A stretch of DNA of 64,000 nucleotides. Source: Clostridia bacterium (GTDB lineage Bacteria > Bacillota > Clostridia > DUPQ01). The stretch covers positions 4,498 through 68,497 of the forward strand of contig JBAYNV010000001.1 in NCBI GenBank assembly GCA_041678685.1. The letters are read 5' to 3'. The notes under the pieces are model-generated. The model had not been told where the DNA came from, did no database searches, and saw only the letters and a program-made list of their open reading frames with translations. Below are positions 897-18,673 of this stretch, in pieces. Made by a program: the position numbers and the translations under genes. Position 1 is the stretch's first letter; each line of letters begins with the position of its first letter.

Positions 897-1058
897 CCTC
901 CTTTTTAACAATTACATATCTTAACATATTTTTTCGGATATAGCTCATTTTTATTTATTTTAATAAAATAAGTATTTGTGCAATATGATCTGCTGAATAA
1001 TCGCACCGGATAATATATAATAAAGGAAATATAAAATACAGGAAAAGCGGTGATCATT

Positions 1059-2639
1059 ATGGAACTGTTCAAAGAACTCACTTTTACTTCAAAATCATCG
1101 GATCATGACCCTTTCAATTATGTGTCATTATCTGCTCTCTTCACAAGACCGGACGGATCCTCGATATCCGTAACAGGTTTCTGGGCGGGCGGGGACACAT
1201 ACAAATTGCGTTATGACATATCGATACCGGGAAAACACAGATATATAACGGTAAGCAGCGATGATTCCTTAAATGGCATCAAAGGGGAAATAACGGTCAG
1301 GAAATATACAGGTGACAATCCTCTGTATGTCCACGGTGCGATAGGCAGAAAGAACAAGGATCTGTATCTGAGATATAAAGACGGCACTCCCTTTTACTGG
1401 CTTGCCGACACCTGGTGGATGGGTCTTACGGACCGGCTGGATTTCAATAAGGATTTCGGTAAACTCACGGAAGACCGCGTCAAAAAGGGATTCAATGTGG
1501 TACAGATAGTCGCCGGTTTGTATCCCGATATGCTTCCATTTGATGAAAGAGGGAGAAATGAAGCCGGATTCCCGTGGACTGCTGATTTCAAATCGATATG
1601 TCCTGAATACTTCGACATGGCTGACAGAAGGATATTCCATCTGATCAAAAAAGGCATAACGCCCTGCATAGTGGGTTCATGGGGATTTTTCATGAAATTC
1701 GCAGGCAAGGAAACACTTCTGAAACACTGGAAATACCTTATAGCCCGCTGGTCGGCTCTTCCTGTCGCATGGTGCATAGCAGGTGAAGCCAACATGGCTT
1801 TCTATAACGAGAACATATCAGCTGAGGAGCATCTGAGAAGATCCAGGAAAGACTGGAACGATGTAACTCTGTTCGTAAAGAATAACGATCCGTTTAAGAG
1901 GCTCATAACGATACACCCTACAAACAACGGTCATGAGCAGATAGAAGACGAGACGCTTCTTGACCTTGACATGCTTCAAACGGGGCATGGAGGATTTGCA
2001 TCCATAGTTCCGCAGATGAAACAGATAAAGCACTCTGTGGACCGCAAGGCGCTTCCTGTCATAAATTCAGAGTGTAATTACGAGGGTATATGCGGGTCTT
2101 CATACTGTGATGTACAAAGATATGTATATCTGTCTGATTTCATGTTAGGTGCTGCCGGACATACATATGGCGCAAACGGCATATGGCAGCTCAACGGGAT
2201 AGGAAGACCTTATGGGCCTTCTCCTCACGGCTCGACATGGGGAGACACGAACTGGAAGGAAGCAGCCTCTCTCCCTGGATCGGGACAGATAGGAAGCTGC
2301 AAGAGATTTCTCACCTCTTTTGAGTGGTGGAGATTTCAATCACATCCCGAATGGGTGGAGAACCCCTGCTCTTTAAACGCATGTGACGGCAACTTCTGTG
2401 TGGGGATCCCAAAGGAAGTGAGGATCATATTCAAACCTAATCTTGGAGGCAGCTTCTGGGGCAATATCGAGATAAGAGGTATTGAAAAAGACATATCTTA
2501 CATGGCATCCAGATTCGACCCGATCCTTGGGAAAGAAACCGTAATAGGCGATGTCATTCCTGACGAGTCAGGTGTATGGAGGATGCCTAAAGTCACCGCA
2601 TTCCAGGACTGGCTGTATATATTAAAAGCAAAGAAATGA
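1059..2639 (+). CDS. DUF5060/DUF4038 (GH140-like) putative glycoside hydrolase, no signal peptide
   Basis: An N-terminal Ig-like region is followed by a FYWLADTWW motif characteristic of the DUF4038/GH140 TIM-barrel family. I prefer the ATG at 1059 (GGTGA 5 nt upstream) over the GTG at 1050. Confidence 0.5.
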   Translation: MELFKELTFTSKSSDHDPFNYVSLSALFTRPDGSSISVTGFWAGGDTYKLRYDISIPGKHRYITVSSDDSLNGIKGEITVRKYTGDNPLYVHGAIGRKNKDLYLRYKDGTPFYWLADTWWMGLTDRLDFNKDFGKLTEDRVKKGFNVVQIVAGLYPDMLPFDERGRNEAGFPWTADFKSICPEYFDMADRRIFHLIKKGITPCIVGSWGFFMKFAGKETLLKHWKYLIARWSALPVAWCIAGEANMAFYNENISAEEHLRRSRKDWNDVTLFVKNNDPFKRLITIHPTNNGHEQIEDETLLDLDMLQTGHGGFASIVPQMKQIKHSVDRKALPVINSECNYEGICGSSYCDVQRYVYLSDFMLGAAGHTYGANGIWQLNGIGRPYGPSPHGSTWGDTNWKEAASLPGSGQIGSCKRFLTSFEWWRFQSHPEWVENPCSLNACDGNFCVGIPKEVRIIFKPNLGGSFWGNIEIRGIEKDISYMASRFDPILGKETVIGDVIPDESGVWRMPKVTAFQDWLYILKAKK

Positions 2640-2681: not shown

Positions 2682-2714
2682 AAAAAAGATACGGGAAGAA
2701 ACCGTATCTTTTTA
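2682..2714. terminator. bidirectional rho-independent terminator between convergent genes
   Basis: aaaaa AAGATACGG gaagaaa CCGTATCTT ttt: a 9-bp perfect stem flanked by an A-run and a T-run. Confidence 0.5.
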
Positions 2715-2740
2715 AAACATCCGAACTTATAAGCTTATTT

Positions 2741-3241
2741 TCATTCCCCTATTATCTGTACTTCGCATACTCTTTTTCTTTCGCGTATCTGATCCCAGTC
2801 AATAAAATAAATGAAGCCGAAATCACCGAGTGAAAGCTGTCCGTCAAACAGCACTATCGTCTCCGAACGGCCGAAGAATACCGAACGTAAGTGGGCATCC
2901 GTATTCAGACTGCCCTTAGGTTCCTCATCAGGGAATGTGAGCGCAAATTCAATATGCTTTGGACCCGGATGCATATACTGGCCTTCACATCTGCAGGTCG
3001 GGATAAGTTTTTCCATTATATTATTAAGATCCTGCTGCAGATATTCCCTGCCGAAAAAATTTTTATCATGCGAGCATTCCTGCGTGATGACCGAACATGT
3101 CGTATGATGCGAATATACTACGCATATTCCGTTTCTGATCCCCGATTCAGCCACGATCTTCTTTACCTGATCCGTAACATTATGGAAATCAGGTCTGTGG
3201 TCATGTGACTGAAGTTCTATCGTACCTCTGTAAACTGCCAT
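2741..3241 (-). CDS. YjbQ/UPF0047 family protein (secondary thiamine-phosphate synthase-like)
   Basis: 166 aa. The conserved pattern NTDAHLRS...FG.S....DG.L.LG.FG.IYF matches the YjbQ family. It is the last gene of the 7-gene minus-strand operon. Confidence 0.55.
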   Translation of the reverse strand: MAVYRGTIELQSHDHRPDFHNVTDQVKKIVAESGIRNGICVVYSHHTTCSVITQECSHDKNFFGREYLQQDLNNIMEKLIPTCRCEGQYMHPGPKHIEFALTFPDEEPKGSLNTDAHLRSVFFGRSETIVLFDGQLSLGDFGFIYFIDWDQIRERKRVCEVQIIGE

Positions 3242-3260
3242 GATTTATCCTCCTCAAATT

Positions 3261-3962
3261 TCATTTATGTAATTTGTCCCACGCTGCGCGTAATGAACAT
3301 ATCATTTCTTCTGCCATAGCGGCAGGATCTTCTGCTTTCATGATCCCGCTTGTGCTGCCTGTCGCCTGTGCTCCCGCCATGATGACATTGTATACATCCC
3401 GGCCGTTGCTTATCCCCGCACCCTGTAAAACCATGATATCGGGATCGATCGCTCTTACCGTCTCTATAGTCTTTTTAACATAATCCAGGCTGCTTGTCAT
3501 TCCCGTTCCGATAAGGCTGGTAGGTTCCGCAACAAGAAGGTTAGGCCTAAGCTTTGCTATGGCGGATAATTCATCAACCGTATCCGCACATACTATCGTG
3601 CCAAGGCCTACTTCGTCAGCTCTTTGTATCGTCTTCCCTATTACTTCCATCGATAAAGGTTTCTCGCAGTGATTGAGCATGACGCCGACAGCTTTAGCGG
3701 CTTTGACCGCTTCAGGCAGCACCGATCCCAGCCCCCTTCCGATAGGCAGGCAATCCATATGCTGGGCAAATACAAATATCCTTTCGGTGTTTTCCGCGAT
3801 CAGCCGGATATCCGTATACTGCGGCGTCACTATTATGTCCACATCATATTTTATTGCTATGCGGTCTATTTCCCTGGCAAGCGCCAGCATCGCATCGCCA
3901 TAAATATATGCTTTCGGCCCCACCTCAAAAAAAGGCGGCTTTATCGTCAACCCTCTGTACAT
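3261..3962 (-). CDS. archaeal-type triosephosphate isomerase family protein (possible tetrose/triose-phosphate isomerase)
   Basis: Collinear with archaeal TIM: PFFEVGPKAY (NFKAY-like Lys), FVFAQHMD, NHCE (catalytic His), VAEPTSLIGTG (the EPPELIGTG motif) and VLQGAGIS. The stop overlaps the upstream SIS gene start. Confidence 0.65.
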   Translation of the reverse strand: MYRGLTIKPPFFEVGPKAYIYGDAMLALAREIDRIAIKYDVDIIVTPQYTDIRLIAENTERIFVFAQHMDCLPIGRGLGSVLPEAVKAAKAVGVMLNHCEKPLSMEVIGKTIQRADEVGLGTIVCADTVDELSAIAKLRPNLLVAEPTSLIGTGMTSSLDYVKKTIETVRAIDPDIMVLQGAGISNGRDVYNVIMAGAQATGSTSGIMKAEDPAAMAEEMICSLRAAWDKLHK

Positions 3963-4570
3963 TATTTTCCTCCCCTGTTCAGCAGCTCCCCTACCGCTCC
4001 GCCCGGATGTATCAAAGCGAACTGTTCTTTCGTAAACCTTGTCTCGGTCATTATAGCTGAAAGCATGGCATCAAAAAGGGCAACTGTTGCGACATAACTC
4101 GATGTCGCCATCAGACCAAGCGGATCGCTTTCCTTCTCTATCCGTATCGGCACTACTATATCCGCATTCAAAGCAAGCGGGGATCCCAGATTTTCGGTCA
4201 CCGCTATCAGTATCGCTTCCTTTTTATTGCAGACTGAAATTATCGGAAGCAGTTCGTTCGTCTTTCCTCCTCTTGAGATCATTACCATGACATCTCCCTT
4301 TTTCAATGCTCCCAGACCGCCGTGCACGGCTTCACAAGGGGACATGAACATGGCATTTTTCTCTATGCAGCAAAGGGAATGAGCGAATTTTTTAGCGGCA
4401 ATGCCCGATGAGCCGCTTGCACATGTCATTATCCTGTCACAGCGGCAAAGGGCGTCACAGGCCTGTTCGAATGATTCCAGATCCAGATATCCCTTTATAT
4501 CTGCAACTGCCTTCATTTCGATATCAAGTGAATCCATGGCGGCTTTTATTGATTTCTTCTTCATGTTCAT
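3962..4570 (-). CDS. SIS-domain sugar-phosphate isomerase (PHI/KpsF-like, single SIS domain)
   Basis: 202 aa with the SIS fold signature (GSSG...VMVMISRGGKT...AVTENLGSPLA). Confidence 0.6.
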   Translation of the reverse strand: MNMKKKSIKAAMDSLDIEMKAVADIKGYLDLESFEQACDALCRCDRIMTCASGSSGIAAKKFAHSLCCIEKNAMFMSPCEAVHGGLGALKKGDVMVMISRGGKTNELLPIISVCNKKEAILIAVTENLGSPLALNADIVVPIRIEKESDPLGLMATSSYVATVALFDAMLSAIMTETRFTKEQFALIHPGGAVGELLNRGGK

Positions 4571-4576
4571 CCTTTC

Positions 4577-5923
4577 CTAAATGACCTGTATGCCGATTAT
4601 ATCGCATAGATCCCTTATCTTTTCCGTATTGTCTCCGTATGAGATGATATAGTGCTGACACATGACGTTCTTCGTAAAACCATCCATATCGTCAAGAAAT
4701 ATCTCCAGTCCCGGAAGCTGAGGCGCCGGCTGTGTCCAGCCTGCTTCCTCCCACTTTCCTGGAGCCACTCCTGTTCCTTTTACCATATGCATGGTATATT
4801 CACCGTTACTGCATGATAAGCGGCACAATGTGATTTCACCGGTTTTTAACCGTGATACATTAAGTATACCTTCAGATAGTCCGCCAAAAGCGGCAGGCAT
4901 AACCTGTACATTACCATCCACTATTTCAGAAGGAACATAGTCAGGTACGCCGGCTAACACCCTGTCTTTCATGAATTCATAGAATTCCAGATATGCCGCA
5001 CACTGGCCGGTAGAATATTTTACCATCAGCTGTGTCACCAAACCTAAAGAATCATTTTCCGGTATGGTGCAAAGACCGTCGTTGTCCCCCAGCAGCATGA
5101 ATATCGGCGCAGGCGGGAATCCTAAAAGCTTCTTCATCCCGTCTACATCCTTGAGTGATACCGCTTCATAATGACGTTCCTTTGCAAGACCGATAAGAGC
5201 AAGGTAATATCCTGCCGCCTTCATCATTCCGTCTTTGCGCGGTTCTTTAAGGAATTTCCACTTTGACATGCTGTTATTTATTACCGCATTCTTTTTTACG
5301 TCGGATATTTTCTCATATCTCTGTACTATTTCAAGCATCTCAAAGGTTTCGATTTCAACGCCTACAGTCTTTTTCAATGAGATCCCATCGTATAAAGTAC
5401 CGTACAGCCCCATGTCACGGTATCCCATCATTCCCGCTTTGACGTGATGAAGTCTTTCAGCGGAATATGCAACCCTGCAGTAATCTGCGACCTTCACTGA
5501 GTTTTTTAGCGCTCCTACTGTGTCATAGATATATTTAAAAGTATATCCCAGATCGGACATGGTTTTTCTAAGCGATGAAGTACCGGCCTGGTCAGCGGTC
5601 GTAATGAGTCTGTCACCTTCCATCCAGCCTGACAGCCCCCAAAGCACCATCGGTTTATGGCGGAAGTATTCCGTTACCTTGATCACCGCATGAGCGGGTA
5701 TCCAGCCTGCTATGCATATGACAAGCACATCAAAGTCAGAAGCCCTGAGTACCTTTACCGCTTTCTCGATATCGCTCCCTTTTTCATCATCAGTTATGGG
5801 ATAAACAGATGTAAGCCCAATACCTTCTGCCATAAGGGCATTCAATGCATCGCCGCATTTTTTTATGATTATCTCCTTTGGCGTGTTGACTTCACCAAAA
5901 CCTGCAAATCCGGCCTTAACCAT
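4577..5923 (-). CDS. L-fucose/L-arabinose isomerase family protein (short form)
   Basis: 448 aa. Overall similarity to the FucI/AraA-like aldose-ketose isomerase family is by recollection only. It is tightly coupled to the flanking genes. Confidence 0.45.
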   Translation of the reverse strand: MVKAGFAGFGEVNTPKEIIIKKCGDALNALMAEGIGLTSVYPITDDEKGSDIEKAVKVLRASDFDVLVICIAGWIPAHAVIKVTEYFRHKPMVLWGLSGWMEGDRLITTADQAGTSSLRKTMSDLGYTFKYIYDTVGALKNSVKVADYCRVAYSAERLHHVKAGMMGYRDMGLYGTLYDGISLKKTVGVEIETFEMLEIVQRYEKISDVKKNAVINNSMSKWKFLKEPRKDGMMKAAGYYLALIGLAKERHYEAVSLKDVDGMKKLLGFPPAPIFMLLGDNDGLCTIPENDSLGLVTQLMVKYSTGQCAAYLEFYEFMKDRVLAGVPDYVPSEIVDGNVQVMPAAFGGLSEGILNVSRLKTGEITLCRLSCSNGEYTMHMVKGTGVAPGKWEEAGWTQPAPQLPGLEIFLDDMDGFTKNVMCQHYIISYGDNTEKIRDLCDIIGIQVI

Positions 5924-7316
5924 TGTATACCGCCTTTCTCAGATCCATAAATCTATCGTATATATCCTCATACGCTGCCTTTGCAGGCAGATATATTTCA
6001 TCTGTTTTTACCAGCAGGCTGCATGCTTCTCTGACGGAATCGAATGCTCCTATGCCGACTCCGGCCAGTATGGCCGAACCAAGGCATGCCGTTTCCCTGT
6101 CTTTCAGGGTCACGATCTTACAGCCGGTGATATCTGCCTTTATCTGGCACCATAATGCGCTGTTTGCCGCTCCGCCCATGGAACGTATTTCACTTACATC
6201 CGTTCCCATATCGATAAGCGAGCTCTTAAGCGTGCATGCAATGGCTTCCATTATGCTTCTTGCAAAATACCCTTTGGTATGACTTAAGCTGATCCCGTGA
6301 AACATACCTCTGGCGTCCGGATCATACGGCGCTATTGAACCGCACAGATAAGGAAGCATGGTGAGCCCGTCACATCCGGCCGGGACTCTGCAGGCCAGTT
6401 CATCCAGTTCCTTATAGCTCATACCCCCGCAGAAATTGTCTTTGTACCATTTTAGTACCATTCCCGCTGTTGCGGTCCATGAAAGAAGGCAGTATCTGCC
6501 GTCGTAGTTATAGTGGCAGGGTATTCTTTTCACCGGATCATAAGGCGGTACCATTTCTGACGGAGCGAATATAGACATCGCAGTACCGGTCATTTCGCTT
6601 ACCATACCATTTTCTACTATTCCCGCTCCTATAGCGCCTGCTATCTGATCGATCGCTCCTGTAACGACCGTTATGTTCCCTGTATTCCCTATGCATTCCC
6701 CACTGTCGTGAATCGCAGGAAGCATATCCGGCGTGATATTCAGATATTCGAGCATTTCCGTCCACCATCCGCCTTTATGTATATCAAAATAAAGGCTCGA
6801 TGACTGTAATGTCTTTTCTGTTATGAATTTACCTGTAAGTCTGAAAAGAAGATAATCCTCAAGCAGGAATATCTTCCTGACCTTCTTCCATATATCAGGT
6901 TCATTTTTCTTCATCCACAGTAACTTGCATGCGGGCCATGTGGCTGTCACTTCCGCCTGCCCCGTCGTTTCGTATATTTTCTGCCGGCCAAAGTCCTTCT
7001 GTATCTCACAGGCTTCCGCCACAGCCCTGTTGTCAAGCCATACTATAGCGTTGCACAGAGGCTTTCCTTTTTCGTCAGCCATTATCAAAGTCTCGCATTG
7101 CGTGTCAATTGCGATCGCTGATATGTCGTTGCTCCAAGCTGTTTCTTTTACAGCTATCAGGAACAGATCGAAATATTCATCCGCATCAAATTCAACGTGA
7201 TCGCCTTTACTGATCAGTTCATAATCCACATGAGCGGATATGATACACTGTCCGGTCTGGTCATATACAGCGGCTTTTATTGATGTCGTCCCGACATCAA
7301 CTCCAAGTAACTTCAA
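5916..7316 (-). CDS. FGGY-family carbohydrate kinase (xylulokinase-like)
   Basis: FGGY N-terminal LLGVDVGTTSIKAAVYD plus C-terminal motifs. I prefer the TTG start at 7316, which has GGAGGG 5 nt upstream. The ORF track gives a GTG at 7337, which has no SD and overlaps the upstream gene by 25 nt. Confidence 0.8.
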   Translation of the reverse strand: MKLLGVDVGTTSIKAAVYDQTGQCIISAHVDYELISKGDHVEFDADEYFDLFLIAVKETAWSNDISAIAIDTQCETLIMADEKGKPLCNAIVWLDNRAVAEACEIQKDFGRQKIYETTGQAEVTATWPACKLLWMKKNEPDIWKKVRKIFLLEDYLLFRLTGKFITEKTLQSSSLYFDIHKGGWWTEMLEYLNITPDMLPAIHDSGECIGNTGNITVVTGAIDQIAGAIGAGIVENGMVSEMTGTAMSIFAPSEMVPPYDPVKRIPCHYNYDGRYCLLSWTATAGMVLKWYKDNFCGGMSYKELDELACRVPAGCDGLTMLPYLCGSIAPYDPDARGMFHGISLSHTKGYFARSIMEAIACTLKSSLIDMGTDVSEIRSMGGAANSALWCQIKADITGCKIVTLKDRETACLGSAILAGVGIGAFDSVREACSLLVKTDEIYLPAKAAYEDIYDRFMDLRKAVYNG

Positions 7317-8815
7317 GTATTCCCTCCGATGTTCCACATCCGGTTTATCTCAAGAACAGTTTTTCTGACCAGTATCTCTCCGCCTTCGTGCCCTGTTATA
7401 CCGCTGGACACATAAGCGCTGTAATGGCTTCCCGCCTCGGCTTTTTCTGTAGGAAGATAAAGCCCGTTCCCGCAGGCCAGCTGTATTATGAATGTCTGCT
7501 TTGCCCTGCTTCTTGCCCTTATGATATTCCCATAGTCAAGGAACAGTTCAAAAGGATTTGTAGCAAACGCTATGTCTGAAAACCGCACGACATGCACCTC
7601 CACAGGGAAATACCCATGGTCCTTCTGATATCCGTATCTTGCGGCTGTTCCAGCATAAACATGCATCTGCGCATTATCAGCAAAATCAAACCCGGATCTT
7701 CCTGCCTTGCTGATATATCCGGTTATCTGATCCTTCGCGATTTCGTATTCAGATCCTGTCACGGTCCTTACGGGCAGGTCAAAGATCATCACTTTATGGA
7801 CAAGCGCCATATCATCACATATATGTGAAACAGCTTTTTCATAAACATCGGCGATCTCATCTGCTATGCGTTTTCCGACTTTCCATGTGCCGTTTATATC
7901 AAACATTGACGTATCGGCATTTCTTTCAGTATGGTTTTCCCTTGATATGTTCGGATCATCTATCGGCGTCTCCGGCCCGACCCATCTTATGAGATCACGG
8001 GGGCACTGGTCGCCCGCCGCAGAGCATAATCCCAGAACATACAGACTGCTATTGAAGTGCTCGCGAAGCAGTATCCTTACCTTTCCCCAATAATCGGAAG
8101 ATATGAAGCTTCTGTGCTCTACGACCTGGGCAGGACAAGCGATATTTGCAACAACGCCTGTCAGTTTCTTTTGCCCGTCGAAAATATACAGAAGCTCTAT
8201 TCCTGAATCATTTCCTCCTTCAAGGTTCATAAAATCCAAACTATCGGTATCTCCCCACATCCTCGCTGAGCCGTCTTTGTATACGGCTCTTCTGCACATG
8301 CCTACAGGCGCGCGTCCGAATCCATTGGCATGATATGCTTTCTTTCTTGCTTTCCATGCCTGGATTATAGCGGCCGAGATCCTCTCTGCCAGAAACAGCA
8401 AGGCTTCATGAGGGTCCAGCACATCATCTGATGATGCTTTTGCAGTATATTGACTGTCTTTTGGCAGAAATGAGGAAAGCACATCCAATGCCGAGCCGTA
8501 TGTATCGCTTTTTGTTTCATATACCATCGCGGTATGGACATGGGTCGCATTTATTATTATCTTATCAGTGTCCAACCCTATATCTTCTGATCTTACGCGA
8601 CCGCGCACCATTCCAAGAAGGCCTGTATCGATATATAAAAGATCGCATGAGCATATGACCAGCTGATCAGATCCTGATTCAACAGCCATCGCCGTAGCTG
8701 TAATGGGAGTCTCCACATATTCCGAGATCCTTTCAAAAAACTGCCCGTCAAGACTTACCTTCCTGTCCGGCGTTATACTCTCTTCCGCCCAGCCTATCAA
8801 CAGTGCGTCATGCAT
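7313..8815 (-). CDS. hypothetical cytoplasmic hydrolase with neutral/alkaline ceramidase-like N-terminal domain
   Basis: 500 aa. The N-terminus LIGWAEESITPD resembles the ceramidase N-domain motif (G-x-A-x-x-D-ITP). There is no signal peptide. GGGGGA lies 5 nt upstream of the start. The family assignment is tentative. Confidence 0.4.
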   Translation of the reverse strand: MHDALLIGWAEESITPDRKVSLDGQFFERISEYVETPITATAMAVESGSDQLVICSCDLLYIDTGLLGMVRGRVRSEDIGLDTDKIIINATHVHTAMVYETKSDTYGSALDVLSSFLPKDSQYTAKASSDDVLDPHEALLFLAERISAAIIQAWKARKKAYHANGFGRAPVGMCRRAVYKDGSARMWGDTDSLDFMNLEGGNDSGIELLYIFDGQKKLTGVVANIACPAQVVEHRSFISSDYWGKVRILLREHFNSSLYVLGLCSAAGDQCPRDLIRWVGPETPIDDPNISRENHTERNADTSMFDINGTWKVGKRIADEIADVYEKAVSHICDDMALVHKVMIFDLPVRTVTGSEYEIAKDQITGYISKAGRSGFDFADNAQMHVYAGTAARYGYQKDHGYFPVEVHVVRFSDIAFATNPFELFLDYGNIIRARSRAKQTFIIQLACGNGLYLPTEKAEAGSHYSAYVSSGITGHEGGEILVRKTVLEINRMWNIGGNT

Positions 8816-8825
8816 GCATATCCCC

Positions 8826-9593
8826 CTAGACTAATATGACGTCTATTCCTTCCGCCTTGAGATTTTCGATTTCGGATCCCAGTGCTCTTGTATTCGTAAC
8901 AATATGATCCGCCATACCTGTTTTCGCTATTTTAACAAAGGCTGTCCTTCCTATCTTTGTGTAATCTGCCGCTATGATCGTTGTATTCGACTGTCTGATC
9001 ATCTGAAGGCATATTTCCTTCTCCTGCTGATAATAGGTCGTAAGTCCGGTCTCCATGCTCACTCCGTCAACTGACAGTATGAGTTTGTCCGCATGATATG
9101 ATGAAAGCTGTAAAAGCGCGTCATTGCCTGATGTGAACTGATATCTCGTGTTGACTGTCCCGCCAAGGAGTATCACATTGAAATCCTCATATTCTCCGGC
9201 CTCAGTCGCGATAGCTATGGAATTCGTAACTATATTCAGGTGCTTTTTACTCTTCATCGCATGAAGCGCGAACAGCGTAGTCGTTCCTGAATTCATCATT
9301 ACGGTCTCTCCGTCATTTATGTATCCTGCCACACATTCCACAATAGCTTTTTTTTCTGCCTCATTCGTGTTTGAACGCTGCTTAAAATTCATGTTGAAGT
9401 AGTTTTTGTATGAACTGACCGCGCCCCCGTATACCCTTGACAGCATGCCTTCCTCTTCAAGACCGGTAAGATCATAACGTATCGTTACTTCGGAGACATT
9501 AAAAATGCGTGACAGCTCATTCACCTTCACTTTGCCATCGCTGTGGAGCATTTCAAGTATCCTGTTTTTACGTTCGCTAATGCTTAGTTCCAC
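8826..9593 (-). CDS. DeoR-family transcriptional regulator (HTH + sugar-phosphate binding domain)
   Basis: N-terminal DeoR HTH (RKNRILEMLHSDGKVKVNELSRIFNVSEVTIRYDL) and a C-terminal DeoR sensor domain. GTG start with GGAGG upstream. It is the first gene of the operon. Confidence 0.85.
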   Translation of the reverse strand: MELSISERKNRILEMLHSDGKVKVNELSRIFNVSEVTIRYDLTGLEEEGMLSRVYGGAVSSYKNYFNMNFKQRSNTNEAEKKAIVECVAGYINDGETVMMNSGTTTLFALHAMKSKKHLNIVTNSIAIATEAGEYEDFNVILLGGTVNTRYQFTSGNDALLQLSSYHADKLILSVDGVSMETGLTTYYQQEKEICLQMIRQSNTTIIAADYTKIGRTAFVKIAKTGMADHIVTNTRALGSEIENLKAEGIDVILV

Positions 9594-9691
9594 CTGTCCT
9601 CCGATTATAAAAATGGTTTCGATATATTACGTATATATTTCGTTTTACCTTCATTACATATGTTATTACATTTCATTTGATATTTCAAGAC

Positions 9692-9720
9692 ATAAAAAAA
9701 ACCTCTTTTTACAGAGGTTT
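9692..9720 (-). terminator. rho-independent terminator downstream of the tRNA cluster
   Basis: AACCTCT ttttac AGAGGTT hairpin. On the minus strand it is followed by a run of 7-8 T (A-run on plus at 9692-9699). It lies immediately 3' of tRNA-Lys. Confidence 0.55.
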
Positions 9721-9798
9721 TGGTGAGACATCGGAGACTCGAACTCCGGACACCTTGATTAAAAGTCAAGTGCTCTACCACCTGAGCTAATGTCCCAC
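9721..9798 (-). tRNA. tRNA-Lys (anticodon TTT)
   Basis: Reverse complement GTGGGACATTAGCTCAGGTGGTAGAGCACTTGACTTTTAATCAAG...TCTCACCA. It has a cloverleaf with anticodon loop cTTTTaa and an encoded CCA. Confidence 0.85.
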
Positions 9799-9801
9799 AT
9801 T

Positions 9802-9876
9802 TGGCTGGGATGGCAGGATTTGAACCTACGAGTGACGGAGTCAAAGTCCGTTGCCTTACCGCTTGGCTACATCCCA
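9802..9876 (-). tRNA. tRNA-Gln (anticodon TTG)
   Basis: Reverse complement TGGGATGTAGCCAAGCGGTAAGGCAACGGACTTTGACTCCGTC...CATCCCAGCCA. The anticodon stem ACGGA/TCCGT has loop cTTTGac, and CCA is encoded. Confidence 0.85.
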
Positions 9877-9890
9877 CCGCACCTATCTAA

Positions 9891-9968
9891 TGGGGTGAAT
9901 AAAGGGATTCGAACCCTTGGCCTCTAGGGCCACAACCTAGCGCTCTAACCAGCTGAGCTATACCCACC
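9891..9968 (-). tRNA. tRNA-His (anticodon GTG) with G-1
   Basis: Reverse complement GGTGGGTATAGCTCAGCTGGTTAGAGCGCTAGGTTGTGGCCCTAG...TTCACCCCA. It has an extra 5' G typical of tRNA-His and anticodon loop tTGTGgc. Confidence 0.85.
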
Positions 9969-10053: not shown

Positions 10054-11493
10054 TCAGTCCTGATCCTTTGCTTTTATCCTCAGGTTTATATGATCAAGTC
10101 TGTCAAATTCCTCGTAATCCACCTGCTTGGTGATGTTCTCGAGTTCATAGTCGCCCATAACAGTGTTCCTTCCATTCTCGTATTCCTTATCTACGACAGC
10201 TTTGATCTTTGCCACGATAAGATCGGTTTTTTTGACTGTCTCATCCGGTGATTTAAGTCTGAAGAATGAGTTGAGCCAGTGCGCGACGCCTGCAAGACCG
10301 CTGTGGGAATCCACTGCGACAGTAGGAGGCCTGTTTAATAATTTTTCCGTATCGAATATGCTGTATATCTCAACATCCTTCAGCATGCCGTCAGCATGTA
10401 TGCCTGCTCTTGTGACATTAAAATTCCTGCCTACAAAGGGAGTCCTCGGAGGTATCTCATAACCTATATACTCCTCGAAGTATTCTGCTATTTCTGTGAT
10501 CGTGGGTATTTCCATGCCATCTGTCGTGCCTCTTAAGGAAGCATACTCTATGACCATTGCTTCAAGCGGACAGTTGCCTGTCCTCTCACCTATCCCAAGA
10601 AGCGAACAGTTGACGCCCGATGCGCCGTAGAGCCATGCTGTGGAAGCATTTGTAACGACCTTGTAGAAATCGTTGTGACCGTGCCATTCAAGCATATCGC
10701 TTGGGACCCCGCCGTAATGCTGCAGGCCATATATGATGCCCGGAACGCTTCTTGGCAGCGCTGCACCGGGATAAGAAACGCCAAAGCCCATGGTATCGCA
10801 GGCTCTGATCTTTATGGGTACCTTTGCCTCAGCTGAAAGCCTTGTCAGTTCGTCAGCAAAAGGTACTACGAATCCATAGAAGTCCGCTCTGGTTATATCT
10901 TCAAAATGGCATCTTGGCTTTATTCCTTTATCCAGAACGGCTTTTACTATCCCAAGATGCTTATCTATAGCCTGTTTTCTTGTAAGACCCATTTTATTAT
11001 ATATATGATAATCGGAACACGATACAAGTATCCCTGTTTCCTTGAGCCCTAATCCCTTCACTATGTCGAAATCTTTTTCATTTGCCCTTATCCAGCTTGT
11101 TATTTCGGGAAATTCATACCCTAAGGCCAGGCACTGTTCCACTGCTTTACGGTCTTTGTCAGTGTATACGAAAAATTCAGTCTGTCTGATCAGCCCTTTG
11201 GGTCCTCCGAGTTTATGCATGAGCTCATACAGATGCACTATCTGCTCTACCGTAAAGGGGGATGTCGATTGCTGCCCGTCTCTGAATGTGGTATCTGTAA
11301 TCCATATTTCCTTAGGCATGTTCATGGGAACGCTTCTCTGGTTGAAGGATACCTTCGGAATGGATCCATAGTCATAGAGATAACGGTACAGATTCGGCTG
11401 CTCCCTGTCCTGTAACTGATATTTATATGCTGATTGCTCCAGCAGGTTCGTCGTATCGGAAAACTGAAGTATGGGGTTAGTGTCATTTTGCAT
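10054..11493 (-). CDS. LeuA/NifV-family DRE-TIM metallolyase (2-isopropylmalate/homocitrate/Re-citrate synthase-like)
   Basis: WITDTTFRDGQQS, the HxH metal-binding region (EWHGHNDF) and the overall length fit the family. The N-terminal extension of about 55 aa means the exact start is uncertain. Confidence 0.7.
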   Translation of the reverse strand: MQNDTNPILQFSDTTNLLEQSAYKYQLQDREQPNLYRYLYDYGSIPKVSFNQRSVPMNMPKEIWITDTTFRDGQQSTSPFTVEQIVHLYELMHKLGGPKGLIRQTEFFVYTDKDRKAVEQCLALGYEFPEITSWIRANEKDFDIVKGLGLKETGILVSCSDYHIYNKMGLTRKQAIDKHLGIVKAVLDKGIKPRCHFEDITRADFYGFVVPFADELTRLSAEAKVPIKIRACDTMGFGVSYPGAALPRSVPGIIYGLQHYGGVPSDMLEWHGHNDFYKVVTNASTAWLYGASGVNCSLLGIGERTGNCPLEAMVIEYASLRGTTDGMEIPTITEIAEYFEEYIGYEIPPRTPFVGRNFNVTRAGIHADGMLKDVEIYSIFDTEKLLNRPPTVAVDSHSGLAGVAHWLNSFFRLKSPDETVKKTDLIVAKIKAVVDKEYENGRNTVMGDYELENITKQVDYEEFDRLDHINLRIKAKDQD

Positions 11494-11656
11494 AATTTAA
11501 ATCGTTTCCTTTCATCTTTTGTCCATTAAATATAAATTATGACGAATTATATAACCACTTTTGAATAATTGCAACAATTTTCTTTCATATTTAAATATAA
11601 AAATACAGCCGCATGTATGAATAAGCAGCTGTATGGTATATCAAAAGAAATATCTG

Positions 11657-13135
11657 TTATTTATCTGTTGGGATCTGGGCTTTCTTTGCTGTGATCTCAC
11701 CGATCATTCTGTCATATTCCTTTTCGTCGACTTTGTTTTTTGTCTGCATCACCAGGAATGCGCAGCCTATAAGGAATATTGGAACGAAAACTATGATGCA
11801 TCTGAAATTCATCTTCATCGAATCTGTTCCCAAAGCAAGAGCCTGATCTATCATCGCGCTCTTCTCAACAGCATCGATCTGACCCATATTGCTCAATTGT
11901 TCCGCTTCCGAAATACCGTTTGTGATAGCAGTGATGCCAAGTAAAAGATATGCGGCCGCAACTATCCCCTGCTCAAGCGCAGATCCCATCTTTGCCATGA
12001 ATGGTCTTATCGAGAAGATTATTGCCTCGTCTCTGTTACCTTTCTTGTATTCGTTATACTCTATGCAGTTGGTAAGATTGATGGTTATGACCATATATAT
12101 CATGGACTGCCCGAAAGCCAGAAGCAGACCGGCAACACACAGAAGAAGATATATCATAGGTATCGCTATACCGATAATGAAGAAGAAACCATATCCCAGG
12201 ATAACGCCTATAAGTCCCAATACCGCTATCTTGCTTCTTGTCAGATGCTTTGCCATTGCAGGATATACGATATTCACAAGCAATGATCCCAGAGCATATG
12301 CGCCTACGAACAAAGTGATATTTATCCCATCATATCCGAAATACATATATACATATATGATACCAAAAACATTTATAAGGGATGAACCCAGATTATATAG
12401 AAGCATCTCTAAAGACGTCCACAGAAGCTGATCGTTTTTCAATACGACGTTTATCATTGCTTTAAACCCTATCTTTTCGTTATTCGGACGATATGATACA
12501 GGCGCTTCTTTCACGCAGAATGTCGTCATTGCCTGGCACCCAATGAATATGAGGCCGATTATGATAGCTACTGCTCTGTATCCGGTAATGGAGTTGCCTC
12601 CAATTGCCATGGAACCGTTTGTCAATATCGGTATTGCAGCAAATGCTATGATAGCGCCTATCGCCGCAAAAAGATTGGCCATTGAAGTCAGCGTAGCTCT
12701 CTGATTCTGATCCTTTGCCAAAGAAGGAAGCATTGCCCAATAGCTTATATCGTTCATAGTGAACGTTATATCGAACAGAAGATATAATATGCCGAAGAAA
12801 ACAACAAAGTTCCAGCCTGTGAAACCCGATGAGAAATATATGACCATCACAACCGCACTGGTCACGGCCCCTATGATTATCCATGGTTTGAATTTACCCA
12901 ATTTCATTTTGGTATTTTCAATGATACCACCCATCACCGGGTCATTTATTGCATCCCAGATACGGCATACGATCATAATTATACTGATCGCAAAAAACTG
13001 CGCATCCGTCAATGTCCTTGTGAACATGACATATGTCAGCAGATAAGCTGCAAAAAGCTGATAAGCCATGTCACGTCCGATACCGCCAAGCGAATAAAAC
13101 CACTTGTTACGATTGAATGTTTTTGTCTCGTCCAT
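11657..13135 (-). CDS. GPH-family (MelB-like) glycoside/pentoside/hexuronide:cation symporter
   Basis: Twelve predicted TM segments and the YSLGGIGRDMAYQL...GPH signature. I prefer the MDETK start at 13135 (GGGGGAGAG SD) over the track start at 13156. Confidence 0.75.
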   Translation of the reverse strand: MDETKTFNRNKWFYSLGGIGRDMAYQLFAAYLLTYVMFTRTLTDAQFFAISIIMIVCRIWDAINDPVMGGIIENTKMKLGKFKPWIIIGAVTSAVVMVIYFSSGFTGWNFVVFFGILYLLFDITFTMNDISYWAMLPSLAKDQNQRATLTSMANLFAAIGAIIAFAAIPILTNGSMAIGGNSITGYRAVAIIIGLIFIGCQAMTTFCVKEAPVSYRPNNEKIGFKAMINVVLKNDQLLWTSLEMLLYNLGSSLINVFGIIYVYMYFGYDGINITLFVGAYALGSLLVNIVYPAMAKHLTRSKIAVLGLIGVILGYGFFFIIGIAIPMIYLLLCVAGLLLAFGQSMIYMVITINLTNCIEYNEYKKGNRDEAIIFSIRPFMAKMGSALEQGIVAAAYLLLGITAITNGISEAEQLSNMGQIDAVEKSAMIDQALALGTDSMKMNFRCIIVFVPIFLIGCAFLVMQTKNKVDEKEYDRMIGEITAKKAQIPTDK

Positions 13136-13276
13136 ACTACTCTCCCCCATATACATTTGTTAGATTGATTTGTAATATCATGATTATATATCGGGAAACA
13201 TCATTATTTCAATAAGCAAGAAAAATAAAGTATGATCCCGGTCATTTTAATGAGAAAAAGACCTCATATGAAGTCT

Positions 13277-15199: not shown

Positions 15200-16117
15200 A
15201 TGAGATCCCGTGGAATATATGTAACAATGATCACCCCATACACAGTCAGCAATAAGATCGATTACAATGTAGTGGAGAAAATGGTCGAATGGTATATCAA
15301 AAATGGCCTGCACGGTATATTTGCCGTATGCCAGTCATCAGAAATGTTCTACCTTTCAAGAGATGAAAGAAAGGAACTTGCATCTTTCATAATCAGAACG
15401 GTGAACGGAAGGATACCTGTCGTGGTGTCCGGGCACGTCAGTGAATGTGAAAATGAGCAGATCACCGATGTATACGACGCATATGAACAAGGCGCATCTA
15501 ATGTCATCCTTCTTACTAATAAGTTCGCGATGAAAGATGATCCGGAAGGTACATTCATAAGGAATCTTGGATCGTTCATAGATAAAATACCCGAAGGGAT
15601 ACCTCTGGGGCTGTATGAATGCCCTGCACCATATAAGTATGTGCTCACAGACAAGGACATGAAATGGGTCATACAAAGTAAAAGATTCACTTTCTTTAAA
15701 GACACATGCTGCGATGCGGATATTATAAAAAACAGGATCACTCTGGCAAAAGGCACGGATTTTTCCATATTCAATGCAAACGGCGGGACTTTCTACGAGA
15801 CACTCAAGGCAGGCGCATGCGGCTACAGCGGTATAATGGCGAATTTCCATCCGGATCTGTATGTCTGGCTTTTTGACAACTATAAAAAGCATCCAAAGGA
15901 GGCAAACCTCGTTGCATCTTTCCTTGCGATGGCTGCAGTCATAGAGACAAGGGTCTACCCTGCATGCGCTAAATACCATATGCAGAGATATTTCAATGAA
16001 ATGCTTACGGATTCCAGAAGCTGTGATGCATCACTTTTGAAAAGTTTTATGAAAGATGAAGTGGATGCGATGGAGAACGTTGCCCAGTTTATAAGAGAAA
16101 CGATAAGGAGCATATGA
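15200..16117 (+). CDS. DapA/NAL-family class I aldolase (dihydrodipicolinate synthase / N-acetylneuraminate lyase-like)
   Basis: GIYVTMITPYT and the length are typical of the DHDPS/NanA family. GGAGG lies 6 nt upstream. Confidence 0.7.
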   Translation: MRSRGIYVTMITPYTVSNKIDYNVVEKMVEWYIKNGLHGIFAVCQSSEMFYLSRDERKELASFIIRTVNGRIPVVVSGHVSECENEQITDVYDAYEQGASNVILLTNKFAMKDDPEGTFIRNLGSFIDKIPEGIPLGLYECPAPYKYVLTDKDMKWVIQSKRFTFFKDTCCDADIIKNRITLAKGTDFSIFNANGGTFYETLKAGACGYSGIMANFHPDLYVWLFDNYKKHPKEANLVASFLAMAAVIETRVYPACAKYHMQRYFNEMLTDSRSCDASLLKSFMKDEVDAMENVAQFIRETIRSI

Positions 16118-16118
16118 A

Positions 16119-17459
16119 ATGGTGACGATAACAAGAATGGAACCTTTCGACAGCGGTATAACATTTGAATATACATGCGATGCTTTGGAAAAGCAGCTTC
16201 GTATGAGGATCGCGATGGTACGGCAGTCCTCTTCGAAGGTCATTGAGAAACATATAGACGCAAAAGACGGCATGGTGAACGTTGACGGGTTGGAAAATGG
16301 CAAGGACTATACGGTGTGTCTCACTTTAACCGATAAAATAGGCAGGATAGAAGTCCCATCCTGCACAAGGCTTTTCACTCCTTTTAAAAACAAGAAAAAT
16401 TTCAAGATCATCAACTATATCCACAAAGATGATTTTTATTTCTATCCTTCTGGAAGATCCACATGCTCCCCCTGCCTGCTGGTATTACCAAACGGTGATT
16501 ATTTATGTTCTCATGATGTGTTCTGGGGGCACGGTGCGCAGGATCTTTCATATATTTTCACATCAAAGGATTCCGGTCTGACATGGCATTATCTGTCTCA
16601 TATATCACCCTGCTTCTGGGGAAAATTATTTCTGATAGGCAGTGTCGTATACATGCTGGGCATGTCCACGGAATATGGAGACATAATGCTGCATAGATCC
16701 ATGGATTGCGGAGCCACATGGGATAAGACAGTTTGTCTGTTCAAAACCGACATAGTTGATGAAAGAGGTTTCCACCAGGCTCCGGTCCCGACAGTGATCA
16801 ACAATGGCAGGATATGGACCGCAGTGGAATACGGGACATGGAAGCATAAATTCAGCATACATGTGATTTCGTGCGATATAGGCAAGGATCTGATGGATCC
16901 GAAGAATTGGGCTATGACAGGAGATACATCAGTAAAAATGAATCTCATGGGACTCAGAGGATGCAAGGAAGATCCTGTAGCGATAGAAGGAAATGTCATC
17001 ACAGGGAATGATGGCCGCATGTATGATATGCTCCGATGCAATCTTGTCGATGACGGTATAGCTATCTTAAGCGAGCTTGATAAAAATGATCCTACCGCAC
17101 CGCTTAAAAACATAAGAGCGGTCGATCTTCCTCTAGGACACTGTAAATTTGTCATAAGAAACAGAAACAACAGATATTATGTTATGGGAAACCGTATAGC
17201 CACTCCTTATGGCAACAAACGTCAGACGATGAGCCTTTATGGATCAGATGATCTGATAAGCTGGACTTTTATAAAAGATCTCTGGGATATACGCTCTACT
17301 TCTGACAGAAAGAAAGCCGCTTTGCAGTATCCGGACTGGTGTTTTCAAAATGATGACATCATTGCCGTGATAAGAACTGCCATGGATAAGCCGTTTAATT
17401 TCCATAATGCCAACTGCATCACGTTCCACAGATACAGGAACGCGCTGGAAAGCAAATGA
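16119..17459 (+). CDS. BNR/Asp-box repeat glycosyl hydrolase (sialidase-like, GH33-type beta-propeller), cytoplasmic
   Basis: Asp-boxes SKDSGLTW and SMDCGATW, plus a degenerate SDDLISW. No signal peptide. The start is 1 nt after the lyase stop. Confidence 0.6.
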   Translation: MVTITRMEPFDSGITFEYTCDALEKQLRMRIAMVRQSSSKVIEKHIDAKDGMVNVDGLENGKDYTVCLTLTDKIGRIEVPSCTRLFTPFKNKKNFKIINYIHKDDFYFYPSGRSTCSPCLLVLPNGDYLCSHDVFWGHGAQDLSYIFTSKDSGLTWHYLSHISPCFWGKLFLIGSVVYMLGMSTEYGDIMLHRSMDCGATWDKTVCLFKTDIVDERGFHQAPVPTVINNGRIWTAVEYGTWKHKFSIHVISCDIGKDLMDPKNWAMTGDTSVKMNLMGLRGCKEDPVAIEGNVITGNDGRMYDMLRCNLVDDGIAILSELDKNDPTAPLKNIRAVDLPLGHCKFVIRNRNNRYYVMGNRIATPYGNKRQTMSLYGSDDLISWTFIKDLWDIRSTSDRKKAALQYPDWCFQNDDIIAVIRTAMDKPFNFHNANCITFHRYRNALESK

Positions 17460-17538
17460 TCCAAAGATGATATTATGGGCGGAATGCTTGCAAATCTGAA
17501 GTTTTTCGGGTAAAATCTGAAATAAAAGAGGCTGATAA

Positions 17539-18342: not shown

Positions 18343-18514
18343 CAATATTTAGTATATGTTATATTATTAATACTTAATACAGATATATATAATAGAACAT
18401 CTATTAACAGTAAATTTAAATAATAATAATTGTTTTTGTATTATTATTTATTATTATATTCTATTTATCGTGTATAAAAGTTCAATATTTTTTGATTTTT
18501 ATTCGCATTTAGTA

Positions 18515-18543
18515 TTGACATTGTCATTATACGCTATTACAAT
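18515..18543 (+). promoter_or_regulatory. sigma-A type promoter of the flgB early flagellar operon (TTGACA-17-TACAAT) with overlapping palindrome
   Basis: TTGACA ttgtcattatacgctat TACAAT lies about 125 nt upstream of flgB. The -35 sits inside the perfect palindrome TGACA-T-TGTCA (18516-18526). Confidence 0.55.
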
Positions 18544-18673
18544 GTGAACTATAACATTGGATTATTAAAGATTTCACTTAAATTTTTGGGATTTACTGAA
18601 GGATTTAGTAGCAACAATCGGAATGGATTCGCAAAACAGATAAACGCATTTTTAAAAAACATTTAGGAGGTAA

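Follow-up and report, generated by a model that had tools for sequence, protein, structure and literature searches.

The stretch of DNA analyzed here, called the window, comprises 64,000 nucleotides of a Clostridia bacterium contig (JBAYNV010000001.1) and carries seven consecutive genes on its minus strand. They encode a DeoR-family regulator, a ceramidase-fold hydrolase termed H500, an FGGY-family sugar kinase, an aldose-ketose isomerase termed FucIL, a SIS-domain isomerase, a paralogue of triosephosphate isomerase (TIM) and a YjbQ/UPF0047 protein (Table 1). An initial annotation, made from the sequence alone, had placed seven minus-strand genes at 2741-9593, and open reading frames (ORFs) were found at exactly these coordinates; the near-touching or overlapping boundaries that it described (7313/7316, 5916/5923 and 3962/3962) were recovered as well. 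The kinase gene most plausibly starts at the TTG at 7316, six bases 3' of a GGAGG sequence, where it overlaps the TGA stop codon of H500 (7315-7313). The kinase and isomerase genes overlap by 8 nt and the SIS and TIM genes by 1 nt, while the remaining gaps measure 6-19 nt, and all these junctions are compatible with translational coupling. Downstream of yjbQ, a predicted RNA hairpin (-14.3 kcal/mol, z -3.4) is followed by a T-run, and upstream of the operon the three tRNA genes (9721-9967) are followed by a terminator (9721-9698). With overlapping or abutting genes, one promoter-like site, an operator-like repeat and terminators on both sides, the seven genes form a single real operon, in line with the earlier proposal of one transcription unit headed by the DeoR gene. 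The operon is conserved in hundreds of Clostridia from gut, rumen and digesters. The same seven genes occur in the same order in separate species and metagenomes, with proteins that are 52-85% identical, and this recurrence of an identical gene set and order shows that the arrangement is no product of chance.

Table 1. Genes and sites of the operon and its borders, with positions in the window.
Feature	Position	Strand	Basis
DeoR-family transcriptional regulator, 255 aa, operon gene 1	8826-9593	-	Pfam, NCBIfam
H500, neutral-ceramidase-fold metallohydrolase, 500 aa, catalytic domain only, predicted cytoplasmic	7313-8815	-	fold and profile matches
FGGY-family sugar kinase, 466 aa from TTG 7316	5916-7316 (ORF also opens at GTG 7337)	-	Pfam
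FucIL, AraA/FucI-fold aldose-ketose isomerase, 448 aa	4577-5923	-	predicted structure
Single-domain SIS sugar-phosphate isomerase, 202 aa, KpsF/GutQ-like	3962-4570	-	Pfam, NCBIfam, PDB
Archaeal-type TIM paralogue, 233 aa	3261-3962	-	NF003302
YjbQ/UPF0047 protein, 166 aa, long form	2741-3241	-	Pfam, TIGR00149
Sigma-70-like promoter (TTGAAA, 17 nt, TAACAT) 5' of deoR	9660-9688	-	sequence pattern, alignment
Candidate DeoR operator, direct repeat between promoter-like site and deoR start codon	9616-9643	-	conservation
Terminator hairpin, bidirectional, shared by yjbQ and the convergent GH140-like gene	2682-2715	.	RNA fold
Convergent GH140-like protein (DUF5060 and Apiosidase), non-core neighbour	1050-2639	+	Pfam
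tRNA-His, tRNA-Gln, tRNA-Lys cluster plus terminator, upstream boundary outside the operon	9698-9967	-	ARAGORN, Rfam

The region upstream of deoR was aligned with its orthologous counterparts. Over eight such regions, the TTG of the -35 element and the AT-rich -10 element could be aligned, and the direct repeat AACGAAA-N14-TCGAAAC formed a conserved block. The window copy at 9616-9643, ACGAAA-N15-TCGAAAC, is also located 5' of deoR. In the related genomic stretches fetched for comparison (numbered with the prefix L), the full repeat motif was present once per locus and directly 5' of deoR in L001, L007, L017, L107 and L116; a loose version of the pattern yielded one further match in the window, which is about the chance expectation. 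The conserved direct repeat is likely the operator, and the DeoR protein would be its ligand. This protein matched the Pfam domains HTH_DeoR (60.6 bits) and DeoRC (138.8 bits), and its top NCBIfam model was AgaR, at 193 bits below the cut-off of 260. A scan with Rfam returned the three tRNAs as sole matches and no riboswitch.

The second gene of the operon encodes the protein that is hardest to place by sequence comparison. H500 had no Pfam (E up to 0.01), NCBIfam or PDB sequence match; it is identical to the hypothetical protein WCY62_00075 of a Clostridia metagenome-assembled genome (MAG), and none of its more than 4,000 homologues has a named function or a Pfam domain. The initial annotation had described the 500-residue protein as similar to the N-terminal domain of ceramidases, and the fold was confirmed by structure prediction. 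An AlphaFold2 (AF2) model derived from 34 homologues (predicted template-modelling score, pTM, 0.83) was matched by Foldseek to the neutral ceramidase structures 2zws (E 3.9e-21, template-modelling score, TM, 0.64) and 4wgk (E 3.2e-20), and matches beyond these two had E values above 1e-3. A profile of the wider H500 family also matched 2zws by sequence (E 9e-12), with the THTH of the family aligned to THTHSGP of the ceramidase, up to about residue 200. Bacterial proteins of about 450 amino acids, found in the fetched loci, bridge H500 and the ceramidases. They match 2zws over both catalytic segments (E 2.5e-20), one of them scores above the Pfam ceramidase cut-off, and their profile (Cer448), which reaches only residue 467 of 646 in the ceramidase, was aligned to H500 by hhalign with a probability of 99.9%. 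H500 itself stays below the gathering score of the Pfam ceramidase model PF04734 (32.1 bits), and 19 of 34 members match the model at sub-threshold level. The nearest representative at 50% clustering reaches 18 bits, and a more distant ceramidase-like protein encoded in L142 passes with 45.6 bits.

The ligands of zinc in the P. aeruginosa ceramidase 2zws are reportedly H97, H204, E411 and Y448, with H99 and Y460 as catalytic residues. Chained profile alignments placed ceramidase residues H97, H99, H204, E411, Y448 and Y460 at H92, H94, C227, E423, Y453 and Y465 of H500, all of which are invariant among the 34 homologues. Five of the six active-site residues are thus kept, and the zinc ligand H204 is replaced by Cys. 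The N-terminus of the protein, MHDALLIGWAEE, contains no hydrophobic leader. Given the ceramidase fold and the kept catalytic residues, from which activity is predicted, H500 is very probably an active, cytoplasmic, metal-dependent hydrolase of the ceramidase superfamily with a single His-to-Cys ligand change. The branch of the superfamily to which it belongs comprises 6,619 representatives at 50% identity (E up to 1e-3), and H500 is carried by at least 582 GTDB species genomes, nearly all of them MAGs of uncultured gut, rumen or digester Clostridia. The matches include MAGs of Faecalimonas, Acetatifactor, Christensenellaceae, Acutalibacteraceae and Oscillospiraceae. Fusions to CBM9, GH2 sugar-binding, GDSL or xylose-isomerase-like barrel domains occur in some distant relatives and point to carbohydrates rather than lipids as substrates, and ceramide is an unlikely substrate for a cytoplasmic protein encoded inside a sugar operon. 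The family has neither a Pfam nor an NCBIfam model and lacks a solved structure, and no paper on it was found in the literature searched. Two H500-like ORFs stand in tandem in L028, L041, L046, L058, L075, L083 and L158, where they are either paralogues or split genes.

FucIL could likewise be assigned mainly by its predicted structure. Its Pfam scores are below the cut-offs for both Fucose_iso_C (23.9 vs 29.3) and AraA_central (18.1 vs 24); in NCBIfam, the sulfoquinovose isomerase model SftI (47 vs 700 bits, E 1.5e-12) and AraA (24.1 vs 622) were the sole matches, and a sequence search of the PDB returned none. The AF2 model (predicted local distance difference test, pLDDT, 80.6) was most similar to L-arabinose isomerases (TM 0.78, E 2e-22), followed by L-fucose/D-arabinose isomerases, and Foldseek matched it to 41 AraA/FucI chains in total (E 2e-22 to 3e-12, TM 0.72-0.78). 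A FucIL profile reached only the central domain of AraA in the PDB (E 1e-4). The family is extremely conserved, with a mean column identity of 83% over 30 homologues. In AraA the Mn2+ ligands are Glu/Glu/His/His and in FucI Glu/Asp/His; E289, E313, E316, H379 and H424 of FucIL are invariant, and the AraA alignment covers only the central domain. The neighbouring kinase is a member of the FGGY family, with 175.8 bits on FGGY_N and 92.4 bits on FGGY_C. Its best NCBIfam model was XylB (294 bits, below the cut-off of 380.25), and the fuculokinase model scored 115 bits.

The remaining three proteins form what is referred to below as the isomerase trio. The TIM paralogue scored 188 bits on NF003302, the model of the archaeal-type subfamily (cut-off 132), and 144 bits against the P. 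woesei TIM 1hg3. Catalytic residues K17, H98 and E146 and the phosphate loop AGIS are kept and invariant. In canonical TIM, the catalytic Asn contacts the C1/C2 oxygens of the substrate; at this position 18-23 orthologues of the operon protein have an invariant Gly15-Pro16 (EVGPKAY vs INFKTY, with GPK for NFK). Such an exchange would fit a bulkier phospho-ketose and suggests that the substrate is not triose phosphate or exceeds it in size. Judged by its sequence, the operon TIM is no housekeeping copy. The SIS protein (Pfam SIS, 75.6 bits) has no CBS domains and reaches 129.9 bits on TIGR00393, below the cut-off of 203.7; its best NCBIfam models are the arabinose-5-phosphate isomerases KdsD, GutQ and KpsF, and in the PDB it matched 3fxa best (168 bits), along with the single-domain isomerases 5uqi and 3etn. 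YjbQ was recognized by Pfam UPF0047 (PF01894, 97.9 vs 27 bits) and TIGR00149 (83.9 vs 67.75), in a profile match that an insertion of about 30 amino acids splits into two stretches. The protein has 166 residues, compared to about 135-150 in solved structures, and contains conserved His/Cys-rich motifs. Two of these, QECSHD and HPGP.H, lie in the insertion and may mark an additional site for a metal or substrate. The literature searched offers no accepted role for YjbQ proteins. All seven family assignments proposed in the initial annotation proved right, on Pfam/NCBIfam profiles or on predicted folds.

To place the operon among its relatives, 80 loci seeded with H500 (from species genomes) and 80 loci seeded with the TIM paralogue (from metagenomes) were collected. 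Partner genes were counted within 8 kb of the seed in those loci that extend at least 5 kb to each side, which left 33 H500-seeded and 17 TIM-seeded loci. FucIL accompanied H500 in 32 of the 33 loci and the TIM paralogue in 15 of the 17. Next in frequency was the FGGY kinase (21/33 and 13/17, respectively), followed by YjbQ (15/33 and 12/17), SIS (14/33 and 12/17), a TalC/FSA transaldolase (10/33 and 4/17) and DeoR (9/33 and 5/17). TIM was present in 15 of 33 loci seeded with H500, and H500 in 9 of 17 seeded with TIM. Over the roughly 120 related loci compared, the genes fall into two modules, one of H500 and FucIL and one of kinase, SIS, TIM and YjbQ, with FucIL as the hub between them. Where a TalC/FSA-family gene is present (TIGR00875, 231 bits), it follows FucIL in most related loci.

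The front end of these clusters varies and the back end is constant. In L147 (1287-6812), the place between the isomerase and SIS-TIM-YjbQ is taken by a PfkB-family kinase instead of the FGGY kinase, with a transporter of the major facilitator superfamily (MFS) in front; this kinase swap is a case of non-orthologous displacement. FucIL is absent from L142 (905-11260), which encodes an HpcH-type aldolase, an aldo-keto reductase, a Gfo/Idh/MocA oxidoreductase, a short-chain dehydrogenase/reductase, an Amidohydro_1 protein, an unknown 335-aa protein and the Pfam-positive ceramidase-like protein, then FGGY, SIS, TIM and YjbQ. Clusters without H500 (L148, L151, L152, L153 and L156, in the range L148-L156) have upstream genes for a metallo-beta-lactamase-fold protein, an unknown 558-aa protein that has no Pfam match and a stand-alone CBM9-like protein (as at L151:441-3363 and L156:488-1456), and this set is possibly an alternative front end of the same pathway. 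Recurrent accessory genes encode LacI regulators, UhpC/PgtP-like MFS proteins, MATE transporters, M20 amidohydrolases, PGA_cap proteins, polysaccharide deacetylases and GH39-like proteins.

The operon consists of known enzyme superfamilies in a sugar-catabolic form, but it includes an unannotated, widespread hydrolase family and matches no characterized pathway. A full-text literature search found no paper on this cluster or linking these families. Membership in the pathways for fucose, rhamnose, arabinose, sulfoquinovose, apiose or autoinducer-2 (AI-2) is excluded, as none of the cut-offs for characterized-enzyme equivalogs was reached and no aldolase, epimerase or dehydrogenase is encoded. 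The initial annotation had considered a standard fucose or rhamnose operon as the finding that would overturn its view of a novel combination; no FucA/RhaD aldolase, mutarotase or lactaldehyde enzyme was found, and its view stands. AI-2 processing was considered separately and rejected, with neither LsrF nor LsrG encoded and the LsrK model scoring below XylB.

Our preferred reading, held tentatively, is that the operon serves, under repression by DeoR, the catabolism of a small sugar that is probably imported as a conjugate and passes from H500 through FucIL and the kinase to the isomerase trio. Cytoplasmic H500 would cleave off a group bound by an amide or ester link, such as an acyl group, to free an aldose, which FucIL would turn into a ketose for phosphorylation by the FGGY kinase. 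Effectors of DeoR-family regulators are typically sugar phosphates, and the resulting phosphate ester is probably the inducer. TIM, SIS and YjbQ would then shift the carbonyl along the phosphorylated chain, possibly resetting stereochemistry, until an intermediate of the pentose-phosphate pathway is reached. In the favoured tetrose version, erythrulose phosphate would be converted to D-erythrose-4-phosphate by the TIM paralogue first and SIS second, with YjbQ as a third isomerase in a role like that of the epimerase EryC; the TalC/FSA-type transaldolase, found in about half of related clusters, would drain erythrose-4-phosphate where it is encoded nearby. A carbonyl walk from pentulose-1-phosphate to pentulose-5-phosphate is a mechanically equal variant.

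Several observations weigh against this reading. Tetroses are rare in nature and, whether free or conjugated, are not known to occur in quantity in gut or rumen, while the spread of H500 over at least 582 species-level genomes argues for a common substrate. A start from erythritol or threitol, as in the known pathways, is impossible since the cluster encodes no dehydrogenase. The second isomerase is an SIS protein and the known route uses RpiB. Xylulokinase is a C5-kinase of pentuloses, and the xylulokinase-like kinase and the arabinose-5-phosphate-isomerase-like SIS protein point at least equally to pentoses. H500 is optional in the TIM-seeded clusters and may therefore act on other molecules in some lineages, and its model has low confidence in four loops, one of them beside the putative Cys ligand. 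In the window and its clade, the operon contains neither a transaldolase nor a dedicated transporter, and the role of YjbQ is one that we purely infer. A far-reaching form of the proposal would be an undescribed, widespread sugar pathway of Clostridia in which a ceramidase-fold carbohydrate amidase/esterase with a Cys in its metal site is combined with a TIM/SIS carbonyl walk that erases stereocentres and yields a pentose-phosphate-pathway intermediate without aldolase or epimerase and with YjbQ as a third sugar-phosphate isomerase or epimerase; taken as a whole, this claim is rather doubtful.

A different use of the same enzymes would cut a pentose and rebuild it. FucIL and the kinase would produce pentulose-1-phosphate, which an as yet unrecognized aldolase, perhaps YjbQ, would cleave into dihydroxyacetone phosphate (DHAP) and glycolaldehyde; TIM would convert DHAP to glyceraldehyde 3-phosphate (GAP), TalC/FSA would join GAP and glycolaldehyde to arabinose-5-phosphate, and SIS would yield ribulose-5-phosphate. 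FSA interconverts arabinose-5-phosphate and GAP plus glycolaldehyde, and this scheme accommodates the position of the TalC/FSA gene after FucIL, the similarity of the SIS protein to KdsD, GutQ and KpsF and to the single-domain structures 5uqi and 3etn, and the classical pairing of FucI-type isomerases with C1-kinases, besides leaving TIM with its ordinary job. However, that job is hard to reconcile with the invariant change from Asn to Gly in the TIM paralogue, which speaks against a plain DHAP/GAP role, and the kinase is nearer to xylulokinase than to fuculokinase (294 vs 115 bits). No aldolase for the first cleavage can be recognized, aldolase activity of YjbQ would be unprecedented, and the window operon, like about half of the related clusters, lacks an FSA/TAL gene. 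As a complete route we consider this scheme improbable.

The near-obligate pairing of H500 and FucIL (32/33 loci) could also reflect an amino-sugar route with the logic of NagA and NagB, acting on an unphosphorylated substrate. H500 would deacylate an N-acyl-2-amino-2-deoxy sugar, the head group of which resembles that of ceramide, and FucIL would both isomerize and deaminate the product before the kinase and isomerases act. The amidase residues of ceramidase are kept in H500, and genes for M20 amidohydrolases, PGA_cap proteins, polysaccharide deacetylases and Amidohydro_1 proteins recur beside the pair. Yet the common hexosamines would give fructose or tagatose, for which neither the FGGY kinase nor TIM, SIS and YjbQ are needed, and no member of the AraA/FucI family is known to deaminate. 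TIM-seeded clusters, moreover, often lack H500 and keep FucIL, an indication that FucIL works on an unconjugated sugar too. The probability of this route is accordingly rated as low.

The initial annotation had raised the tRNA-Lys gene as an island insertion point and the GH140-like neighbour as a hint at apiose. On this line the operon would be an island for the use of apiose, or of a different rhamnogalacturonan-II sugar, set free by the GH140-like enzyme. The proximity of these features is real: tRNA-Lys lies immediately upstream, the GH140-like gene (Apiosidase 196.3 bits, DUF5060 46.2 bits in Pfam; cytoplasmic, with a translation in which inspection by eye shows no signal peptide) is convergent, and a GPH glycoside symporter is encoded 2 kb upstream. 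The flanks, however, are conserved along with the operon. A homologous cluster of 58% identity has the same seven-gene order with GH140, GreA and LysS on one side and the HMGL-like and GPH symporter genes on the other, and these flanking genes are conserved in L001, L007, L017 and L098; the tRNA-His/Gln/Lys triplet directly precedes deoR in L001 and L013 and is located about 1.9 kb upstream of it in L017. The order from tRNA triplet through operon to GH140, GreA and LysS is thus retained between species even where the operon proteins have an identity of only 52-73%. The 3' end of tRNA-Lys was found not to be repeated, the GC content of the operon (0.44-0.49) is close to that of neighbouring genes, and no integrase was seen among the flanking genes scanned (GH140-like and GreA), the operon genes or between GreA and the tRNAs. 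The operon occupies its position by inherited synteny and not by recent insertion, which removes the island claim. The apiose hint fares no better: GH140 adjoins the operon only in the clade of the window (L001, L007, L017, L102, L104, L105 and L107) and is absent from every cluster compared outside it, and on chemical grounds the quaternary C3 of apiose, and of apulose derived from it, would bar TIM-type enolization. The apiose pathways of Carter and colleagues (2018) reportedly run via transketolase or RuBisCO-like enzymes. An apiose island is therefore highly improbable.

A variant of a known isomerase-first pathway, for L-fucose/D-arabinose (FucIK), L-arabinose (AraAB) or sulfoquinovose (SftI/SftT), would account for the AraA/FucI fold of FucIL, for its NCBIfam matches solely to AraA and the similarly sized SftI and for the small transaldolase that adjoins it in many loci as SftT does SftI, but scarcely deserves credence with scores far below the equivalog cut-offs (47 vs 700 and 24 vs 622), no FucA, RhaD or AraD domain in the seven proteins or their neighbours, no sulfoquinovosidase, sulfolactaldehyde reductase/dehydrogenase or sulfonate exporter in the loci inspected, and no place for the kinase and the TIM/SIS/YjbQ trio.

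The wider surroundings of the operon were also inspected. An isopropylmalate/homocitrate-synthase-like (HMGL-like) gene and the gene for a MelB-type GPH glycoside symporter are located 5' of the tRNAs (10054-13156, minus strand), and the symporter is the sole candidate transporter near the operon in the window genome. Both are 78-86% identical to their orthologs in L001, L017 and L098, compared to 52-73% for the operon proteins, so the operon evolves faster than its flanks. An ABC transporter in L001 was considered as an uptake system and set aside, because the tRNA genes lie between it and the operon and the window has no such transporter; the structure nearest to its binding protein, 4rxu, is a glucose complex. 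Further along, at 15200-17459 on the plus strand, a divergent lyase of the dihydrodipicolinate synthase (DHDPS) family, for which all specific models score sub-threshold, is followed by a 446-aa protein that has no Pfam domain and contains Asp-box-like motifs (DSGLTWHY and DCGATWDK) suggestive of a sialidase-like propeller. The two proteins may cleave a keto-deoxy or nonulosonic sugar acid, such as 3-deoxy-D-manno-octulosonate (Kdo) or a sialic-acid-like compound, and could feed D-arabinose or N-acetylmannosamine to the operon; their genes lie outside every related locus fetched. Low GC content (0.32-0.33) marks positions 17500-19000, over a GNAT acetyltransferase gene and an AT-rich gap, and a flagellar block follows from 18674 onward with rod-protein-like ORFs, then FliF, FliG, FliH and a FliI-type ATPase.

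The near-obligate pairing of H500 with the equally unannotated and extremely conserved FucIL suggests an abundant, unrecognized nutrient in gut, rumen and digester environments. Solving the pathway would clarify what a cytoplasmic ceramidase-superfamily branch and the bacterial paralogue of archaeal-type TIM do in the cell, and might do the same for the widespread YjbQ/UPF0047 family, which is not known to have an agreed role. It would also provide an additional marker gene set for gut and rumen metagenomes. If the carbonyl walk proved true, the isomerase trio would be useful for rare-sugar pathways and for synthetic C1/C2-assimilation pathways, which already borrow LerI and DerI.

Comparison with characterized systems shows how far each part of the operon departs from its closest analog. 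H500 shares with neutral ceramidase (PF04734; 2zws and 4wgk) the fold of the catalytic domain, the HxH motif, the Glu, both Tyr residues and an Arg equivalent. It differs in its low sequence identity (14%), in the lack of a C-terminal immunoglobulin-like domain and of a signal peptide (500 amino acids vs 630-690) and in the second zinc-binding position, an invariant Cys in H500 and a His in the ceramidase. FucIL has the three-domain fold of AraA, FucI and SftI at TM 0.74-0.78, is close to SftI in length (448 vs 443 amino acids) and adjoins an FGGY kinase as the isomerases of ara and fuc operons do, whereas its sequence similarity to them is barely detectable, its scores lie below the equivalog cut-offs and its partner enzymes are different. 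The SIS protein resembles the single-domain arabinose-5-phosphate isomerases of E. coli (c3406, 5uqi) and Bacteroides fragilis (3etn) and the Listeria protein 3fxa in having about 200 amino acids, one SIS domain and no CBS pair, but it scores below the TIGR00393 cut-off and has no context of Kdo biosynthesis. NagA and NagB offer the same logic of an amidohydrolase and an aldose-ketose isomerase as an obligate couple; their folds are unrelated to those of H500 and FucIL, and in the operon phosphorylation by the kinase would come after this couple, which would act on an unphosphorylated substrate.

For the pathway as a whole, catabolism via tetrose phosphates is a reasonable and the best available analogy, with a resemblance at the level of families only. 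The erythritol kinase of Brucella is a member of the FGGY family. No RpiB, dehydrogenase or EryC-type barrel was found among the operon proteins with Pfam, which places the operon outside the tetritol systems proper. In Brucella, erythritol is phosphorylated by a kinase and then converted by the isomerases EryC, TpiA2/EryH of the TIM superfamily and RpiB/EryI to erythrose-4-phosphate (PMC5992420), and LerK, LerI and DerI lead from L-erythrulose-1-phosphate to the same product (PMC10733421). Like these systems (EryA-EryB-EryC-EryH-EryI in Brucella and LerK-LerI-DerI in Mycobacterium smegmatis), the operon combines a kinase, an isomerase of the TIM superfamily and a second sugar-phosphate isomerase, and the three isomerases of the Brucella route match the constant trio described here. 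Entry of the product into the pentose-phosphate pathway, a transaldolase that is often nearby and regulators of DeoR type are further common traits. In contrast to the tetritol systems, the operon has no polyol dehydrogenase, and entry would proceed via an aldose isomerase of the AraA/FucI fold. Its TIM is of archaeal type and that of the tetritol systems a paralogue of bacterial TpiA; SIS stands in place of RpiB and YjbQ in place of EryC, a xylose-isomerase-like barrel, and the ceramidase-fold hydrolase and the anaerobic Clostridia hosts set the operon further apart.

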